Shown: positions 1 through 6,210 of the stretch, piece by piece
How positions within the stretch are numbered: position 1 is the first letter of the stretch
How the letters are laid out: the number at the start of each line of letters is the position of its first letter
Program-made: the position numbers and the translations under genes
The notes under the pieces: generated by a model
Told to the model about the DNA's origin: nothing
Database searches by the model: none
The model's input: only the letters and a program-made list of their open reading frames with translations
From: a virus
Lineage: Duplodnaviria > Heunggongvirae > Uroviricota > Caudoviricetes
Length of the DNA: 6,210 nucleotides
Virus record (IMG/VR): IMGVR_UViG_2740892432_000002
Span: 1 to 6,210 of that record
Direction: 5' to 3' (one strand)

Positions 1-8
1 AGAGACCC

Positions 9-30
9 GGCGGGGGAGAAATCCCCCGCC
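9..30 (+). other. Stable GC-rich hairpin (GGCGGGGGA / GAAA loop / TCCCCCGCC), no U-tract on either strand
   Basis: Perfect 9-bp inverted repeat with a GNRA-type GAAA tetraloop read directly from the sequence. Flanks are not T-rich on either strand, so it is not a canonical intrinsic terminator. Confidence 0.5.
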
Positions 31-69
31 ACCTCTGATGTGTCAGGCATCCTCAACGCACCCGTACTT

Positions 70-93
70 ACCCGCTTCGGCGGGTTTTTTGTT
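70..93 (+). terminator. Rho-independent terminator (ACCCGC / TTCG loop / GCGGGT followed by TTTTTTGTTGT)
   Basis: GC stem with a UUCG-type tetraloop immediately followed by a T6 run. It lies upstream of the first ORF, consistent with the end of an upstream transcription unit (tR-like terminator in a nin-type region). Confidence 0.65.
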
Positions 94-246
94 GTGGTGG
101 AGAAATTAGCTTTTTGTGTACTCTTTTAGCAGTAAGTCTTGAGGGACTGACTGTTGTAAATAGAATCGTGTTTGCTTAGTTAGCGCGCAGGGAGAAGAGG
201 GATGGACCCTTCAGGGGAACGCTATTAATCTGGAAAATTTCTATTT

Positions 247-507
247 ATGGATTTCAAGAAGTTGCGCAAAATTTTTAATAAAGATGGTCTCTATGCTGTG
301 CGCGTTGAAAATGGGGAAATTATTAGTTGTTACTGCATTCATTGCTCACGGGCTTTGCAACAGCCTAGTGGGGCTATGTTAATATATCTCTTGAATGGGC
401 ATGTGACGGACGGATTTATGTTGCGTGAAGATGAATTTGTCACATCATTACGGACATTAAAAGAAATTGGATTAAAAGCTGGCTTTTCTGCTTTTGAAGA
501 CGATTGA
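247..507 (+). CDS. Hypothetical small protein (86 aa), AT-rich codon usage
   Basis: ATG-initiated ORF from the six-frame track. Its stop TGA (505-507) overlaps the TTG at 504 of the next ORF, suggesting operon packing. Only a weak SD-like GGAAAA lies upstream and I recognise no family. Confidence 0.45.
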   Translation: MDFKKLRKIFNKDGLYAVRVENGEIISCYCIHCSRALQQPSGAMLIYLLNGHVTDGFMLREDEFVTSLRTLKEIGLKAGFSAFEDD

Positions 508-584
508 ACTCATCTACAATTCAGCGCAGGGTTGACCCCCTGCTGAGTAACACCGTGCCACCGGAGAAAGCCGATGGCAAGCCG

Positions 585-1184
585 ATGGCACATATACAAC
601 TGATCAAACATACCTCTTCTGGATTACTGCTCCCGGCAACACCGGAGAGTTGCGAATTCTTGCATCAAATAAAAATAGGTGAGTGGATACACGCTGATTT
701 TAAGCGCGTTCGTAACTACGCATTTCACAAGCGTTTTTTCAAACTCCTGCAACTCGGATTCGATTATTGGACTCCTGTCGGTGGGGCGATCACCTCTCGT
801 GAACGAAAACTTGTGTCCGGTTTCGTTGATTATCTGTGTGACTCGGTCGGCCGGGAACATACGCCAGCCCTGAGTGATGCCGCAGAACAATATCTGAATA
901 CCATTGCGATACGCAGAACCTGTGATACGGCATTGCTAAAGTCATTTGATGCTTTCCGTGAATGGGTAACTATTGAGGCCGGATTTTACACCGAGCATTT
1001 TTATCCGGACGGTAGCCGTGGACGCAGGGCAAGATCTATCGCGTTTGCAAATATGGACGATACCGAGTTTCAGCAGGTTTATAAATCCGTACTGAATGTG
1101 CTGTGGAACTGGATCCTGTTCCGTAAATTTTCCTCTCCGGAGGAAGTCGAAAATGTGGCCGCACAGTTACTGGAGTTTGCGTAA
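585..1184 (+). CDS. Lambdoid nin-region protein, DUF1367-like (about 199 aa from ATG 585; the ORF is open from TTG 504)
   Basis: Long + strand ORF directly upstream of a YbcO-like gene and a Q-like gene, a gene order I recall from lambdoid prophages. First in-frame ATG is at 585; the GGAG at 562-565 is rather far from it, so the start is uncertain (alternatives TTG 504, GTG 555). Stop TAA 1182-1184 overlaps the next ATG by 1 nt. Confidence 0.7.
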   Translation: MAHIQLIKHTSSGLLLPATPESCEFLHQIKIGEWIHADFKRVRNYAFHKRFFKLLQLGFDYWTPVGGAITSRERKLVSGFVDYLCDSVGREHTPALSDAAEQYLNTIAIRRTCDTALLKSFDAFREWVTIEAGFYTEHFYPDGSRGRRARSIAFANMDDTEFQQVYKSVLNVLWNWILFRKFSSPEEVENVAAQLLEFA

Positions 1185-1474
1185 TGGTGGATTTACGTAA
1201 AGCGGCGCGGGGGCAGATGTGCACCGTCAGAATTCCTGGCTACTGCAATCACAATCCCGAAACATCTGTGCTGGCGCATTATAGGCTGGCGGGGACGTGC
1301 GGAACAGCGACAAAACCACACGATATGCAGGCAGCGATTGCCTGTAGCTCATGCCACGATTTAATCGACGGGCGGGTAAAAACCAGCGATTACACCAAAG
1401 AAGAATTACGCCTGATGCATGCAGAAGGTGTTTTTCGCACACAAGAAATCTGGAGAAAGGAAGGTTATTTATGA
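1184..1474 (+). CDS. YbcO-like (DUF1364) Cys-rich putative nuclease or zinc-binding protein, 96 aa
   Basis: 96-aa ORF containing several Cys plus a CSSCHD motif; size and position match the YbcO family found just upstream of Q in lambdoid prophages. Start ATG overlaps the upstream stop (TAATG) and its stop overlaps the Q start (ATGA), indicating translational coupling. Confidence 0.75.
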   Translation: MVDLRKAARGQMCTVRIPGYCNHNPETSVLAHYRLAGTCGTATKPHDMQAAIACSSCHDLIDGRVKTSDYTKEELRLMHAEGVFRTQEIWRKEGYL

Positions 1475-2013
1475 TTTACCCAACAAATACAGGCAAAAGC
1501 GGGGAACACCTTCGTCTCACCACGCTGGAAAGTGTCTGGATTCAGGGAAAACTGCGCATGTGGGGGCGCTGGTCGTATATTGGCGGCGGTAAGACGGGAA
1601 ATATGTTTAACCAGTTGCTGGCATCCAAAAAATTGACGAAAACAGCCGTCAATGAAGCCCTGCGCAGGATGAAAAAAGCGGGAATAGAGAAACCTGAGCT
1701 GGAAGCGTTTTTGCGAGAGATGATCAATGGCAAGCAAAAGACCTGGCTGGCGCATTGTACTGATGCAGAGGCGTTATGTATTGATAGAGTCATAAGTGAG
1801 GTGCTGGCAGAGCATCCTGGATTGATTAGTGTCCTCCGGCAACGGTATGAAGGACGGGGGATGACTAAGCGCAAAATGGCTGAATTGCTAAATGATGCAC
1901 ATCCTGAGTGGTGTTTTAGCACATGCGAAAAGCGAATTGCTAATTGGTTGGCTGTTGCTGAGTATGCCCTATATATTCCCATGCGAGAATCATTTGCTCA
2001 AAAAATAGCTTGA
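1471..2013 (+). CDS. Q-like late-gene antitermination protein (180 aa)
   Basis: Last gene before a terminator hairpin and the lysis cassette. Start ATG 1471 has an SD (GGAGAAAGGAAGG) 6 nt upstream and overlaps the upstream stop (ATGA). C-terminal half carries a four-Cys pattern (C-x7-C ... C-x3-C) compatible with the zinc-binding domain of Q proteins. The six-frame track's longer ORF from 1351 overlaps the upstream gene and is treated as a read-through artefact. Confidence 0.7.
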   Translation: MIYPTNTGKSGEHLRLTTLESVWIQGKLRMWGRWSYIGGGKTGNMFNQLLASKKLTKTAVNEALRRMKKAGIEKPELEAFLREMINGKQKTWLAHCTDAEALCIDRVISEVLAEHPGLISVLRQRYEGRGMTKRKMAELLNDAHPEWCFSTCEKRIANWLAVAEYALYIPMRESFAQKIA

Positions 2014-2096
2014 TTTTTTACGCATAAACTGCTTCAATTCCGGTATGCTTCGCAAAGCTGTATCGCGAGGCGAACCAAGCGCATGAACTTTACCAG
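2014..2096 (+). promoter_or_regulatory. Putative late promoter (PR'-like) and Q-utilisation region; exact -35/-10 not resolved
   Basis: Interval between the Q stop and the tR'-like hairpin, where lambdoid phages place PR' and qut. Only weak candidates were found (TTGATT at 2010-2015 with TTCAAT at 2033-2038). Call is by position, not a strong motif. Confidence 0.3.
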
Positions 2097-2125
2097 AACC
2101 CGCCATTGAGCGGGTTTTGTTGTTT
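2097..2125 (+). terminator. tR'-like rho-independent terminator (AACCCGC / CATTGA loop / GCGGGTT followed by TTGTTGTTT)
   Basis: 7-bp GC-rich stem followed by a T-rich tract about 85 nt downstream of the Q stop, the expected position of the terminator that Q-modified RNA polymerase reads through. Confidence 0.65.
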
Positions 2126-2197
2126 CTGGTACTGGCGAACCTGATGTTTCATTTCTGGAGCGCGATTCCTGGCGGAATACCTAGAATCGAGACATTC

Positions 2198-2206
2198 TGG
2201 TAAAAT
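2198..2206 (+). promoter_or_regulatory. Candidate extended -10 promoter (TGg-TAAAAT) for the moron gene
   Basis: TGn immediately upstream of a near-consensus -10 hexamer TAAAAT (2201-2206), about 28 nt before ATG 2235, which has a strong SD (GGAGGTGAG at 2226-2234). No good -35, as is typical of extended -10 promoters. Confidence 0.4.
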
Positions 2207-2234
2207 TGTTTTCAGTACAGGATGTGGAGGTGAG

Positions 2235-2804
2235 ATGAGAGAACTACCTAAAGATTATTTTTTAGGAGTAGATGATGAGCTCGTCGATTATCTTGAAAAA
2301 CAAGGGGAAGAGACGATACGAGAGATTCATCTTTCTAACAAAACCAATGTTGAGAATGGATACAAACTTCTGAACATTCAGATTGTTGGAATTGGTTCAT
2401 CTTTTTTATTGCTGACACAGAAAACTAATTTCGATTTTCTCACCGCCGGAATTACCACATTTACATTACTATGGACATGGTGCGCCATTTACTTGGTATG
2501 TACTGGTTTATCTGTGAAGGTTAGGGGCCTGATCAATGCCCCTCCTGATCATCTATATCATGAAAAATATAAGGATATGGAGCCCTCGAGCTTTAAAATA
2601 TTCGCTGATGCAGGATATTTAGGACCTGATAAGTTATTGCCGCTTATACGAAGGTATCGCCTTGTTGACTTGAGTGATACAGCAAGAGAGTTACTGTTGG
2701 AAAATGAGAAAATCCGCACGAGTCTCGATAAAGCAAGGATGTATACCATCCTTGCTCCGGTAGCGGCGATGTTTATCTCGGCTGTTTTTTTATATGTTCA
2801 ATGA
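2235..2804 (+). CDS. Hypothetical membrane protein, 189 aa, three predicted TM helices; moron between Q/tR' and holin
   Basis: ATG with a strong SD 4 nt upstream. Hydrophobic segments at roughly residues 46-63, 70-92 and 171-189 (C-terminal YTILAPVAAMFISAVFLYV). Acidic N-terminal segment of about 45 aa. Visibly more AT-rich than the flanking phage genes. I recognise no family. Confidence 0.65.
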   Translation: MRELPKDYFLGVDDELVDYLEKQGEETIREIHLSNKTNVENGYKLLNIQIVGIGSSFLLLTQKTNFDFLTAGITTFTLLWTWCAIYLVCTGLSVKVRGLINAPPDHLYHEKYKDMEPSSFKIFADAGYLGPDKLLPLIRRYRLVDLSDTARELLLENEKIRTSLDKARMYTILAPVAAMFISAVFLYVQ

Positions 2805-2934
2805 CTGAGTCGGCAGAATCTCCAACAAAAACACGACGTGTAGCAAAGTCTGTAGTACTTTGTGTTGGAGTTGGTTTTGGTGCCACGGGTTGCTGAGGTT
2901 TATTTTCACCTTGTGGTTTGTTTTTTTCAGACAT
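2773..2934 (-). CDS. Small hypothetical protein, 53 aa (MSEKNKPQGENKPQQPVAPKPTPTQSTTDFATRRVFVGDSADSVIEHIKKQPR), convergent with the moron gene
   Basis: ATG at 2934-2932 (- strand) with SD AGAGGA about 7 nt upstream. A plausible sigma70 -10 (TATATA/TATACT) lies upstream on the - strand near 2990-2998. The six-frame ORF (2773-3165) extends further 5' but the first SD-preceded ATG gives 53 aa. Pro/Gln-rich low-complexity N-terminus; overlaps the 3' end of the 189-aa gene by about 30 nt. Could be spurious. Confidence 0.3.
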   Translation of the reverse strand: MSEKNKPQGENKPQQPVAPKPTPTQSTTDFATRRVFVGDSADSVIEHIKKQPR

Positions 2935-3028
2935 AAAAATCCTCTTTGTTTGAATTGTTACTTTTGGCGATTTAACGATATCAAACACGAGTATATACCG
3001 CCAGAAGCTTAATCTGGCACTCCATCTG

Positions 3029-3056
3029 GCCCCGGCATGTCCCGGGGCTTTTTCGT
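3029..3056 (+). terminator. Rho-independent terminator (GCCCCGG / CATGTC loop / CCGGGGC followed by TTTTTCGTTGTT)
   Basis: Perfect 7-bp GC stem followed by a T5 run on the + strand, about 95 nt upstream of the holin start. It is oriented to stop + strand transcription from the moron promoter before the lysis genes. The - strand flank is not T-rich, so it is unidirectional. Confidence 0.65.
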
Positions 3057-3151
3057 TGTTAGGCTCCGGAAAGATCCTCGACTTCTTGTTAGCAAGCCTG
3101 AGAGCCTGAATCTTACACTTAGCACCATCCGAACTCTCGGAGGTGAGGCTT

Positions 3152-3493
3152 ATGAAAATGCACAATGCCCCTCATTCCTGGCCTGACTTACTGGAACTCT
3201 TACAAAGTTGGTGGCGTGGAGATACGCCGCTGGGTGCAGTGGTTATGTCAATTATTATGGCTGGTTTGCGCATTGCCTATTTTGGCGGTGGCGGCGGCTG
3301 GAAACGAAAAACGCTTGAGATTCTGCTTTGTGGTGCTCTGACGCTGACCTTTGCATCCGCGCTTGAGTATGTCGGATGGCCTAAATCACTTTCTGTTGCC
3401 ATTGGTGGTGGGGTGGGGCTGATTGGTGTTGATGCTATTCGTGGTGCGGCAATGAGGGTCATCGGTAACAAGTTCGGTGCCCATAAGGAGTAA
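3152..3493 (+). CDS. Holin (three predicted TM helices, MKM dual-start motif); not lambda S-like in sequence
   Basis: Sits immediately upstream of the endolysin (stop TAA 3491-3493, R ATG 3497). SD GGAGG at 3139-3143 is 8 nt before ATG 3152, and a second Met follows at codon 3 (M-K-M), as in the lambda S107/S105 holin/antiholin arrangement. An in-frame GTG at 3143 would give MRLMKM. Three hydrophobic helices and a charged C-terminus (RGAAMRVIGNKFGAHKE). Confidence 0.8.
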   Translation: MKMHNAPHSWPDLLELLQSWWRGDTPLGAVVMSIIMAGLRIAYFGGGGGWKRKTLEILLCGALTLTFASALEYVGWPKSLSVAIGGGVGLIGVDAIRGAAMRVIGNKFGAHKE

Positions 3494-3496
3494 TTA

Positions 3497-3973
3497 ATGC
3501 AGACACTTAATTCCCAGCGTAAAGCTTTCCTTGATATGGTGGCATGGTCAGAAGGAACAGATAACGGACGGCAGAAAACCAGAAATCACGGTTATGATGT
3601 TATTGTCGGTGGCGAACTGTTCACTGATTACTCCGATCACCCCCGCAAACTTGTCACGCTAAATCCGAAACTCAAATCAACAGCCGCTGGACGTTACCAG
3701 CTTCTTTCACGCTGGTGGGATGCCTACCGCAAGCAACTTGGCCTGAAAGATTTTTCTCCAGAAAGTCAGGATGCTGTAGCGCTGCAGCAGATTAAAGAGC
3801 GTGGCGCTTTGCCGATGATTGATCGCGGTGATATCCGTCAGGCTATCGACCGTTGCAGCAATATATGGGCTTCACTGCCGGGCGCTGGTTATGGTCAGTT
3901 CGAGCATAAGGCTGACAGTCTGATTGCAAAATTCAAAGAAGCTGGCGGAACGGTCAGAGAGATTGAGGTATGA
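3497..3973 (+). CDS. R: Endolysin, lambda R-type lytic transglycosylase (158 aa)
   Basis: Translation is near-identical over most of its length to lambda R as I recall it ([55 protein letters not shown]...REI.V); only the first ~6 residues differ. Perfect SD AAGGAG 6 nt upstream. Stop overlaps the Rz start (ATGA at 3970-3973). Confidence 0.95.
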
Positions 3974-4434
3974 GCAGAGTAACCGCGATTATCTCCGCTC
4001 TGGTTATCTGCATCGTCGTCTGCCTGTCATGGGGTGTTAATCATTACCGTGATAACGCCATCGCCTACAAAGAACAGCGCGACAAAAATGCCAGAGAACT
4101 GAAGCTGGCGAACGCGGCAATTACTGACATGCAGATGCGTCAGCGTGATGTTGCTGCGCTCGATGCAAAATACACGAAGGAGTTAGCTGATGCGAAAGCT
4201 GAAAATGATGTTCTGCGTGATGATGTTGCCGCTGGTCGTCGTCGGTTGCACATCAAAGCAGTCTGTCAGTCAGTGCGTGAAGCCACCACCGCCTCCGGCG
4301 TGGATAATGCAGCCTCCCCCCGACTGGCAGACACCGCTGAACGGGATTATTTCACCCTCCGGGAACGACTGGTAATGATGCAGGCCCAACTTGAAGGTGC
4401 TCAGCAATACATAACCGAGCAGTGTTTAAAGTAA
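3970..4434 (+). CDS. Rz: Rz i-spanin (inner-membrane spanin subunit), 154 aa
   Basis: N-terminal TM helix ([16 protein letters not shown]) followed by a charged, coiled-coil-like periplasmic domain. Near-identical to lambda Rz from memory. Position after R and the embedded Rz1 confirm the call. Confidence 0.95.
4190..4375 (+). CDS. Rz1: Rz1 o-spanin lipoprotein (61 aa), fully embedded in the +1 frame of Rz
   Basis: Signal peptide with lipobox (LVVVGC), then a Pro-rich mature region ([18 protein letters not shown]). Matches lambda Rz1 and the Rac RzoR as I recall them. Classic embedded-gene architecture. Confidence 0.9.
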
Positions 4435-4514
4435 AATCTTAACTACAATATGATTCATTTTGATGATTGTTTCATAAGGAACAGTGAAGTAAGATCTAAG
4501 AGGAGTTAAATTTT

Positions 4515-4554
4515 ATACAGTATAATCATAATATTGCAGCAAGGTGGTTATAAT
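4515..4554 (+). promoter_or_regulatory. AT-rich putative promoter region for trkG (two consensus TATAAT hexamers at 4521-4526 and 4549-4554)
   Basis: Two perfect -10 hexamers in the very AT-rich intergenic region between Rz and trkG. No convincing -35 was found. Call is by motif only. Confidence 0.3.
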
Positions 4555-4571
4555 TGAAAGAATATTTAGAT

Positions 4572-6029
4572 ATGAATACATCTCATGTAAGAGTTGTTAC
4601 TCATATGTGTGGGTTCCTGGTTTGGCTCTATAGTCTTTCAATGTTGCCACCAATGGTTGTAGCATTGTTTTATAAAGAAAAAAGCCTGTTCGTTTTCTTA
4701 ATAACTTTCGTTATATTTTTTTGCATTGGTGGCGGAGCGTGGTATACAACTAAGAAATCTGGCATTCAATTACGTACCCGTGATGGGTTTATTATAATTG
4801 TAATGTTTTGGATTTTGTTTTCTGTTATTAGTGCATTCCCTTTATGGATTGACTCAGAACTTAATTTAACGTTCATTGATGCTCTGTTTGAAGGGGTTTC
4901 TGGAATAACAACAACAGGAGCAACTGTAATTGATGATGTTAGTTCATTACCTCGGGCATATTTGTACTATCGGTCACAGTTAAATTTTATAGGTGGTTTA
5001 GGAGTTATTGTTCTGGCGGTTGCTGTATTGCCATTATTGGGTATTGGTGGTGCAAAGCTTTATCAGTCAGAAATGCCGGGGCCATTTAAGGATGACAAAC
5101 TCACTCCCCGCCTGGCCGATACGTCACGGACACTGTGGATAACTTATTCTTTATTAGGTATTGCTTGTATTGTCTGTTATAGACTTGCAGGAATGCCTTT
5201 GTTTGATGCTATTTGTCACGGGATTTCCACAGTTTCGCTTGGTGGTTTCTCAACTCATAGCGAGAGTATCGGATATTTTAATAACTATTTGGTTGAGCTG
5301 GTGGCTGGTTCTTTTTCCCTGCTATCGGCTTTCAACTTCACTCTTTGGTATATTGTTATTAGCAGGAAAACGATAAAACCTTTAATCAGAGATATTGAAC
5401 TTCGTTTCTTTCTGTTAATAGCCTTAGGGGTGATCATTGTTACCTCTTTCCAGGTCTGGCATATAGGTATGTATGACTTGCATGGAAGTTTTATTCATTC
5501 GTTTTTTCTTGCCAGCTCCATGCTCACTGATAATGGTTTAGCTACGCAGGATTATGCAAGTTGGCCCACGCACACGATAGTGTTTTTGCTGTTGTCAAGT
5601 TTCTTTGGGGGATGTATAGGTTCAACTTGTGGTGGAATTAAGTCACTTCGATTTCTTATACTTTTCAAACAAAGCAAACACGAGATAAATCAGCTTTCTC
5701 ATCCCAGAGCGTTGTTGAGTGTAAATGTAGGAGGGAAGATAGTTACAGATCGTGTAATGAGGTCTGTATGGAGTTTCTTTTTTCTTTATACTCTCTTCAC
5801 GGTGTTTTTTATACTGGTGTTAAATGGTATGGGATATGATTTTCTTACATCATTTGCAACAGTGGCTGCATGTATTAATAATATGGGATTAGGTTTTGGG
5901 GCTACTGCATCGTCATTCGGAGTGCTTAATGACATTGCAAAATGTTTAATGTGCATAGCTATGATTCTTGGTCGCCTTGAAATTTATCCTGTTATTATAT
6001 TGTTTTCAGGTTTTTTTTGGCGCTCCTAA
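4572..6029 (+). CDS. trkG: TrkG/TrkH-family potassium uptake membrane protein (485 aa from ATG 4572)
   Basis: Long polytopic membrane protein with repeated Gly-rich selectivity-filter-like motifs (GITTTGATV, GGFSTH, GLATQDY, NNMGLGFG). N-terminus MNTSHVRVVTHM matches Rac-prophage TrkG as I recall it. Markedly AT-rich compared with the adjacent lysis genes. An in-frame TTG at 4554 has a better-placed SD (AAGGTGG at 4541-4547), so the true start may be 6 codons upstream. Confidence 0.93.
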   Translation: MNTSHVRVVTHMCGFLVWLYSLSMLPPMVVALFYKEKSLFVFLITFVIFFCIGGGAWYTTKKSGIQLRTRDGFIIIVMFWILFSVISAFPLWIDSELNLTFIDALFEGVSGITTTGATVIDDVSSLPRAYLYYRSQLNFIGGLGVIVLAVAVLPLLGIGGAKLYQSEMPGPFKDDKLTPRLADTSRTLWITYSLLGIACIVCYRLAGMPLFDAICHGISTVSLGGFSTHSESIGYFNNYLVELVAGSFSLLSAFNFTLWYIVISRKTIKPLIRDIELRFFLLIALGVIIVTSFQVWHIGMYDLHGSFIHSFFLASSMLTDNGLATQDYASWPTHTIVFLLLSSFFGGCIGSTCGGIKSLRFLILFKQSKHEINQLSHPRALLSVNVGGKIVTDRVMRSVWSFFFLYTLFTVFFILVLNGMGYDFLTSFATVAACINNMGLGFGATASSFGVLNDIAKCLMCIAMILGRLEIYPVIILFSGFFWRS

Positions 6030-6063
6030 TATATGGCTGATTTATAATTGTGAGTTTAATATT

Positions 6064-6204
6064 ATGTTGACTCACTCATTGATCCAATACCTAACTTTAC
6101 CAGCAACACCTCCGTCCCCAGTAGCACTGGCTGCTGGGGTGCGTTTTATTCATAAAGCAAGGCTGTATGAGCGAGAAATTAAAGATGATCTTACCCAGCA
6201 ATAG
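6064..6204 (+). CDS. Small hypothetical ORF (46 aa) downstream of trkG; uncertain
   Basis: ATG 6064 in frame with track ORF 5968-6204; the upstream part overlaps trkG and is rejected. Only a weak SD. Alternatively, an ATG at 6185 (MILPSNSG...) in another frame may start a gene that runs off the window end (possibly the Rac ynaK homologue; not verifiable here). Confidence 0.2.
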   Translation: MLTHSLIQYLTLPATPPSPVALAAGVRFIHKARLYEREIKDDLTQQ

Positions 6205-6210
6205 TGGACA

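Follow-up and report, generated by a model that had tools for sequence, protein, structure and literature searches.

Morons, as set out by Juhala and Hendrix, are recognised as DNA that is extra in comparison with close relatives, with a deviant base composition, a promoter and a terminator of their own, and expression from the repressed prophage (PMC3594210). The founding example is gene 15 of phage HK97, whose product, gp15, is a small YebO-like inner-membrane protein, made in the lysogen, that mediates superinfection exclusion and has no partner gene (PMC3594210). Shiga toxin (Stx) phages carry stx with transfer RNAs (tRNAs) and nanS-p at the junction of the late antiterminator gene Q and the holin gene S (PMC6266700, PMC7547250). 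The element dealt with here is in a 6,210-nucleotide (nt) stretch of DNA, the window, that comprises positions 1 to 6,210 of IMG/VR record IMGVR_UViG_2740892432_000002 and covers the part of a Rac-like lambdoid Escherichia coli prophage that is devoted to late regulation and lysis. Its interval 2130-3054, between the leader formed by the late promoter PR' and the terminator tR' and the holin gene, is well supported as a portable two-gene accessory cassette, i.e. a moron, comprising gene A, for a predicted inner-membrane protein, and a small gene, B, that converges on it from the opposite strand. Other cargo at the Q-S junction includes nmpC in DLP12 and cspB/cspF in Qin.

The evidence that the interval is an insertion comes from its flanks. 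On megablast of 2020-3160 against 5426 complete E. coli genomes, 1446 match approximately the first 50-110 nt, from just past the Q stop codon to the terminator at most, and the match continues through the interval in only 223 (4%). Sister prophages have DUF1367-YbcO-Q ~90-93% identical, and the same Rz-trkG. In two that are cassette-free, L003 and L004, homology ends at 2129 and 2128 respectively, just past the terminator tail, and in a Rac variant without Q and cassette it resumes at 3126, just before the holin gene. The same slot in sisters is occupied by genes for tRNA-Thr and tRNA-Gly, with or without a small open reading frame (ORF), or, in others, by TolA-C-terminal-domain genes. (The tRNA genes are at 3322-3475 in L003 and 3348-3501 in L004, and the TolA-C-terminal-domain genes at 4206-5012 in L006; these three Rac-like sisters use an EssD/RrrD-type lysis pair and not the lambda-type S/R.) Base composition sets the interval apart as well, since G+C (GC) content is 40.1% in 2130-3027 compared with 49.2% in the flanking phage genes (chi-square p = 2.6e-6), with 47.3% being the lowest value of any 898-nt window of the flanks. 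At third codon positions the GC fraction is 0.36 for gene A and 0.45-0.52 for Q, S, R and Rz.

A sequence-only reading of the window had proposed a self-contained, AT-rich moron at this position, and had left its boundaries and distribution to be mapped by BLAST. All the features that it listed, the terminators, the extended -10 element TGgTAAAAT, the GGAGG and both ORFs, were found, displaced by no more than ~3 nt, and the proposal itself has held: at the same Q/tR' flank the interval is present in some prophages and replaced by other cargo in others rather than being universal, its composition is distinguishable from that of its neighbours, and it has a conserved promoter-like element, a terminator of its own (3028-3054) and relatives in other accessory slots. 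It is a true moron, of a type familiar from textbooks, whose gene family is uncharacterised.

Portability is further apparent from where other copies reside. Of 80 IMG/VR loci, 59 were informative in having at least 1.5 kb on either side, with Q and lysis genes being called by a reference set, and in 50 of these Q is upstream and lysis genes are downstream. This Q-to-lysis placement recurs in prophages of Citrobacter, Serratia, Pantoea, Morganella, Yersinia, Salmonella, Trabulsiella and Leclercia, and the flanking Q genes come from several unrelated families (DUF1133, PF03589, PF06530 and one further type), with the flanking holins and endolysins likewise being of differing families. The remaining 9 of the 59, with neither Q nor lysis genes, constitute one subgroup; the two of them checked by Pfam (L088 and L105) are among tail genes, the order in L105 being tail tube protein, chaperones G and T, cassette and then antirepressor genes. 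One distant copy, with a convergent ORF of 48 amino acids (aa), is beside a CI repressor gene, another, with an ORF of 47 aa, is among early genes, and a distant family member is beside SieB and HicAB. The vicinity of the repressor gene is an established site for morons (PMC7067206). Occurrence in several slots points to an autonomous unit that lands in accessory positions with a strong preference for the late-operon leader. Other accessory genes keep it company: in related loci the prophage region also has a type I toxin gene of the hok family, and the cassette is followed by a TerB-like gene for tellurite resistance in phage pPE4. (The record of the latter, L028, PP818812.1, 'Actinobacillus phage vB_Apl-pPE4', matches the window at 91% over 1.3 kb of DUF1367-YbcO-Q and has a hok gene and a divergent cassette allele, of 53% aa identity, ahead of the TerB-like gene; since it resembles an enterobacterial lambdoid phage, its stated host seems doubtful.)

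With respect to described morons, the likeness to HK97 gene 15 is in being self-contained, with a promoter and terminator (predicted in the present case), deviant GC content and an inner-membrane product (PMC3594210), and the HK97 slot, after tail chaperones G/T, is that of the cassette subgroup just mentioned. However, tblastn of A against 50,697 phage records detected no similarity to gp15, its matches being confined to 5 records, all of cassette carriers, and gene 15 is a single gene whereas the cassette has two convergent genes and is usually at the Q-S junction. Stx and other cargo at that junction shares with the cassette the site downstream of PR'/tR' and upstream of the holin gene, so that expression would be possible both from an own promoter and by Q read-through (PMC6266700, PMC7547250). 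The products are unrelated, and in the cassette there is in addition a terminator at the downstream end and a partner gene in antisense. The positions of all features are in Table 1.

Table 1. Features of the window, numbered from its first nucleotide; an arrow gives the direction of reading on the minus strand
Feature	Position	Strand	Remarks
86-aa ORF	247-507		PHROG 340, unknown function
DUF1367 gene	ends 1184
YbcO/DUF1364 gene	1184-1474
Q-type late antiterminator gene, DUF1133 family	1471-2013	+	Left neighbour, outside cassette
Candidate PR'	TTGATT 2010-2015, 17-nt spacer, TTCAAT 2033-2038, then -10-like TATGCT 2044-2049	+	Inferred from sequence
tR'-like intrinsic terminator	stem 2094-2119, T-rich tail to ~2129	+	10-bp stem, 6 GC pairs; left edge of insert
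P_A, extended -10-type element TGgTAAAAT	2198-2206	+	Predicted transcription start site ~2213
Shine-Dalgarno GGAGG of gene A	2226-2230	+	From sequence; 4 nt before ATG 2235
Gene A	2235-2804	+	189 aa, predicted inner-membrane protein, PHROG 11870
Hairpin within 3' end of A	2730-2758	-	12 bp, 15-43 nt downstream of B stop
Gene B	2934->2773	-	53 aa from ATG, Pro/Gln/Lys-rich, PHROG 14506
Shine-Dalgarno AAGAGGA of gene B	2940-2946	-	From sequence; purine-rich block conserved in alignment
Most conserved non-coding block of cassette	2957-2985	-	Contains P_B
P_B, extended -10-type element TGaTATCGT	2983->2975	-	Predicted transcription start site ~2968
Second hairpin GCCAGA-N7-TCTGGC	3000-3018		Between P_B and terminator
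Intrinsic terminator closing cassette	stem 3028-3049 + TTTTT, to 3054	+	8-bp stem, 7 GC pairs
Lambda-family holin S	3152-3493	+	Pfam Phage_holin_3_1 E=1.9e-27; right neighbour, outside cassette
Endolysin	3497-3973
Rz / Rz1	3970-4434 / 4190-4375
trkG	4572-6029

Matches to promoter and terminator patterns within the window by itself are not above chance (two terminator-like sites with 1.3 expected, and two GGTAARAT with 0.5 expected), so the case for the signals rests on conservation across diverged copies, for which 96 loci with 51 distinct A proteins, 49 of these variants having an intact A, were available. The sequence upstream of A has diverged except for one block, ATT-n-(A/G)GGTAA(A/G)AT, and the P_A motif proper, (A/T)GGTAA(A/G)AT, is 28-37 nt 5' of the start codon in ~33 of the 51. 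A plus-strand terminator is within ~260 nt 5' of the A start in ~45 of the 51 (at 55-152 nt in most of the lineages first examined), and another is 217-250 nt past the A stop codon in ~29, with a distance of +284 to +419 in several others. On the minus strand, the block containing P_B has the invariant columns T.TG.TAT.GTT...TCG in 12 lineages, TG.TAT..T is 27-48 nt 5' of the B start in ~38 of 47 variants, and a 16-mer of the block occurs once per cassette in 14 loci. Other interpretations of this block were rejected, those involving sigma-E, sigma-32 and sigma-54 by eye, and a sigma-70 reading, TTGATA-18-TAACAA, on account of its -10 being without the key conserved positions.

To the left of the insert, a block at 2014-2075 is conserved in sisters with other cargo and in the pPE4 phage, where an extra gene separates it from Q, and is taken from its sequence to be the late promoter region. 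Its presence just upstream, shared with cassette-free sisters, supports the earlier reading of 2094-2129 as a tR'. The candidate PR' (2010-2049), which overlaps the Q stop codon, was not called by the consensus scan; with that terminator it would give an RNA of ~80 nt, and its TATGCT could be a sigma-dependent pause site. Assigning P_A as the late promoter and 3028-3054 as the tR' is ruled out, as sisters with ~90% identical Q are without the motif and share only 2014-2129. Where there is no P_A motif and a terminator is near the A start, as in the Pantoea, Morganella and Symbiopectobacterium copies, Q read-through would be part of the expression picture, and these copies may be expressed in that way only. 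(In the Morganella locus, L017, a P_A-like TTCAGGGTAAGTT preceded by TTGACT is present at 4890-4970, upstream of the terminator that abuts A, the promoter-like element and the terminator being in reversed order.)

Attention is drawn to the hairpin embedded in the 3' end of A. In the alignment 94% of its cells are paired, compared with ~50% when the partner is slid, five pairs show compensatory double changes, and the observed values were reached by none of 500 shuffles. Since 147 of 156 cells pair on the minus strand (28 of them as G.U) and 121 of 156 on the plus strand, the structure belongs to the B transcript. Some of the compensations are nonsynonymous in A, where Ala-Arg..Ile-Leu-Ala in some copies is Val-Arg..Ile-Leu-Thr in others (Ala..Ala to Val..Thr), and so the sequence of the C-terminal transmembrane (TM) helix of A appears to be shaped by an RNA structure of the opposite strand. 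Its tail is not U-rich in most lineages, and the hairpin is a putative 3' end, whether terminator or stabiliser, of the B transcript. The second hairpin, at 3000-3018, has changed stems in other lineages (GCCAGT..ACTGGC and GCCGC..GCGGC) that appear compensated in the alignment. Rfam has no match in the cassette, and there are no tRNAs in it either.

The AlphaFold2 model of the A protein (predicted local distance difference test score, pLDDT, 84) has three long helices with hydrophobic parts at 45-62, 68-92 and 168-188, of which two are clear in hydropathy with a 19-residue window and the first (45-62) is marginal. In the layout modelled, an acidic helix at the N terminus, in the cytoplasm, leads into a TM hairpin (45-62, 68-92), which is followed by a basic region, also cytoplasmic, that contains RRYRL, and by a C-terminal TM segment (168-188). 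There are 104 homologues in a 90%-clustered database, all from Enterobacterales, with 46-88% identity and nearly all of exactly 189 aa, a length that is retained in 47 of the 49 intact variants; a profile search among 1.8 billion representatives gave 102 clusters. Among these is a clade from Burkholderia and metagenomes whose homology extends along the entire protein (hhalign probability 99.6%, E = 1.9e-23). Truncated fragments of A are common among homologues and in Leclercia a frameshifted A accompanies an intact B, both of which fit A being costly or toxic. (The Leclercia case is L. adecarboxylata NCTC13032, L034 4001-4572, in which A is split into 96 + 89 aa; several neighbour genes there also look frameshifted, so that the split may be due to sequencing error.)

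B is not a trivial ORF. The earlier reading was correct on the presence of a small convergent ORF and underrated its weight, as it is a nearly obligatory coding partner with its own predicted promoter and 3' hairpin. An equivalent is present in 46-47 of the 49 variants with an intact A, including copies whose A is only 28-30% identical. It overlaps A by 32 nt in the window and by 20 or 32 nt in most lineages. Outside the overlap the ratio of nonsynonymous to synonymous polymorphism (pN/pS) is 0.40 and pairwise differences number 872/651/1436 at codon positions 1/2/3; because of that ratio and the third-position excess, B is considered to be translated and under purifying selection. The protein has a conserved C-terminal D-F-x-x-x-R-h-h-V-G-D-S-A-D/E and a basic tail, with no hydrophobic segment. 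(The Prokaryotic Genome Annotation Pipeline, PGAP, annotates it as 71 aa, from an upstream GTG.)

Family searches with both proteins yielded little. Pfam, NCBIfam and PADLOC have no match to A or B, known toxin and antitoxin families in those three included, and PHROGs give 'unknown function' only; PADLOC and Pfam are also without a match to 60 close relatives of A, and the search for homologues of B returned close relatives only, all hypothetical. Sequence searches of PDB with A and with its profile gave noise only, and fold searches with A gave generic helical bundles only. No holin family in Pfam matches A, and a canonical lambda-family holin follows the cassette (Table 1). A few distant members of the A family do match, weakly, the PADLOC models for PycTM (best 1.5e-8) and for the 2TM effector of cyclic oligonucleotide-based antiphage signalling systems (CBASS) (4e-5). 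Effectors of these kinds are small membrane-disrupting proteins of abortive infection. PADLOC on 40 distant members gave matches for the members P0181 (PycTM, 5.5e-4), P0183 (0.036) and P0193 (2TM effector, 2e-3) only, and a profile search from the distant clade gave 41 proteins of which none has a Pfam annotation; as the rescans gave so little, the PycTM link is a hint only. No paper on the A/B family, or on its RefSeq accession, was found in the literature, and two candidates that were checked, HepS and Tai, are unrelated.

How the two genes would be expressed can be outlined from the placing of the signals. In a lysogen, polymerase starting at P_A would make an mRNA of ~840 nt that stops at 3054, and with the A mRNA ending there the lysis genes would stay silent. 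The B transcript, from ~2968 to ~2725, would be complementary over its entirety to the 3' part of the A mRNA, on the basis of which mutual restraint by convergent transcription and antisense pairing is proposed. Upon induction, Q-modified polymerase from PR' would pass both terminators. Being downstream of PR', A would then be strongly transcribed in lytic growth, and the read-through that raises A would meet B transcription head-on. The combination of convergent promoters, insulation by terminators, frameshifted A with intact B and the A fragments fits a potentially harmful inner-membrane effector that is checked by its partner.

Several known systems come near to this. Lambda rexAB and P22 sieA/sieB are prophage-expressed, membrane-associated and in accessory slots, to which the cassette, with its predicted expression, can be likened; a distant cassette copy is, like rexAB, beside cI and another is beside the SieB gene. 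There is no homology, however, and the Pfam scan of A gave no family, SieB included. PycTM and CBASS 2TM effectors are of similar size (~160-190 aa) and, as in A, have an N-terminal helix, a TM hairpin and C-terminal helices, whereas their models are unmatched by A and its close relatives, no cyclase or nucleotide-sensing gene is adjacent and the partner is instead a small Pro-rich protein; for want of the match and the cyclase, A is not considered a member of those systems. In type I toxin-antitoxin pairs of the hok/sok type, a product that acts on the membrane is countered by a short convergent or antisense RNA with a stable 3' hairpin, as proposed here, but A is far larger than Hok-type peptides and the antisense transcript of the cassette encodes a conserved protein under purifying selection. 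To our knowledge a two-gene antisense-coupled design with a hairpin constraining an overlapping coding sequence is undescribed, no paper on one having been found.

For the whole, the best explanation, which is judged somewhat probable, is a moron cassette in which A is an inner-membrane effector of superinfection exclusion or abortive infection and B regulates it or serves as its antidote. The cassette most likely acts in the lysogen and probably against other phages, exclusion or abortive infection being the function that the A-B arrangement suggests. A more specific proposal is offered tentatively: A-B may be an unrecognised two-component prophage defence system, its inner-membrane effector distantly like PycTM/2TM and its partner small and proline-rich. 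Its wiring would consist of convergent promoters, the 32-nt overlap and the hairpin embedded in the effector gene; it would have spread over the classical moron slots of Enterobacterales temperate phages, with relatives in Burkholderia-type phages; and its placing in the late leader would switch A up and B down when Q fires. A number of observations weigh against the best explanation. P_A and P_B are both without a recognisable -35 and the consensus scan called neither, about a third of the variants are without the P_A motif, and in the Pantoea, Morganella and Symbiopectobacterium copies that have none the terminator is 30-35 nt before the A start. The A protein of the window is without a match in PADLOC, Pfam or NCBIfam, and without a structural relative beyond generic helical bundles, the examined cassette neighbourhoods contain no cyclase or other sensor gene, and the distant member with the strongest PycTM match (E = 1.5e-8) was not recovered among those rescanned. 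Two loci, L020 and L106, carry A without B, which speaks against B being an indispensable antidote. Finally, the cassette is directly before lysis genes in 50 of the 59 informative viral loci, and such fidelity could reflect a link to lysis.

That last point is the starting one for a quite unlikely alternative, in which A and B are accessory late or lysis genes transcribed mainly from PR' under Q, with A tuning holin triggering, by depolarisation or in an antiholin-like manner, and B being silenced by head-on transcription. The position directly 5' of holin or endolysin genes, which also applies to all the Enterobacterales contexts first examined, the three lineages with only a terminator before the A start, and the predicted membrane location of A would all suit it. 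It fits poorly, though, with the same cassette being in a tail operon, next to cI and among early genes, with sisters that have the same Q and Rz/trkG and no cassette, with the bracketing by terminators and deviant GC content, with the lack of a holin-family match in Pfam and with the accompaniment of unrelated holin and endolysin types. At the other extreme, it might be supposed that the ORFs and signals arose by chance in an AT-rich spacer, an idea that draws on the single-window matches not exceeding chance. Comparison with other copies has already refuted it: there are more than 100 homologues, uniform in length and with 46-88% identity, a confident AlphaFold2 model, purifying selection on B and conserved non-coding elements.

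Two other alternatives, each of them improbable, accept the moron and differ on what it is for. One is that A-B is an addiction module, akin to toxin-antitoxin systems, that stabilises the prophage and has no anti-phage role, with A as a membrane toxin and B or its RNA as the antidote. Convergent overlapping genes, complementarity of the whole B transcript to A mRNA, the structured 3' hairpin on the B strand, the frameshifting or truncation of A while B is intact and the hok-family gene in the same prophage region of related loci are all as would be expected for it; the loci with A and no B, and the absence of either protein from known toxin-antitoxin families, are not, and addiction and abortive-infection roles are in any case not mutually exclusive. 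The other, also unlikely, is lysogenic conversion unrelated to phages, such as a change of the envelope, stress tolerance or resistance to a colicin or toxin. Moron architecture and membrane location are compatible with this, and similar cargo is nearby (trkG, TolA-C-terminal-domain genes and the TerB-like gene after the cassette in pPE4), but the sequences have no signs of a transporter or enzyme, distant relatives are beside SieB/HicAB, and two genes so tightly coupled in antisense are more usual where a harmful effector is kept under control. An exclusion or abortive-infection effector held in check by B is the explanation preferred here.

The remainder of the window is pertinent to the environment of the cassette. 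Copies of the window that are identical or nearly so are present in induced E. coli phages (vB_EcoS-666R9, ON470614, and relatives). The Q-type gene is assigned by Pfam to DUF1133 (E=2.8e-109), with a weak match to Phage_antitermQ, and by PHROG 753 to 'anti-termination protein Q-like'. Beyond Rz, the late region contains another AT-rich cargo gene, trkG (38% GC), known from Rac. Its product is an established subunit of a K+ transporter and, in contrast to the cassette, trkG is a lone gene with no antisense partner. With the AT-rich spacer 5' of it (31-38% GC), trkG forms a second cargo unit, 4435-6029, directly after Rz, and the two AT-rich insertions thus bracket the lysis cassette; this type of prophage evidently collects morons around it. 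The 86-aa ORF is also AT-rich (38% GC) in comparison with its neighbours and may be a further accessory gene. Near the left end, at 10-90 on the plus strand, is a match to the isrK Hfq-binding small RNA (Rfam RF01394) over the full model, of 33.2 bits and E=2e-4, that does not reach the gathering score of 50; it has a terminator at its end and precedes the series of ORFs that runs up to the DUF1133 Q gene. IsrK of Salmonella Gifsy-1 is upstream of an operon controlling the antiterminator AntQ. In one genome that matches the window region at 100% (L002 1289-2665) an IS1A insertion sequence interrupts the DUF1367 gene and a ParB-like gene after trkG is truncated beside an IS3 element, this prophage copy being a decaying one.

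Temperate phages have their host-altering genes, toxins and anti-phage systems included, in morons. The present one is common: 4% of the complete E. coli genomes have this allele, and over 50 distinct variants are spread across the Enterobacterales. What was a 'hypothetical membrane protein' is now a defined object of ~0.95 kb with clear limits, consisting of a pair of genes, a predicted promoter for each and two structured RNA elements, and its hairpin, whose compensations alter residues of the overlapping gene, provides what appears to be a case of RNA structure constraining protein evolution.

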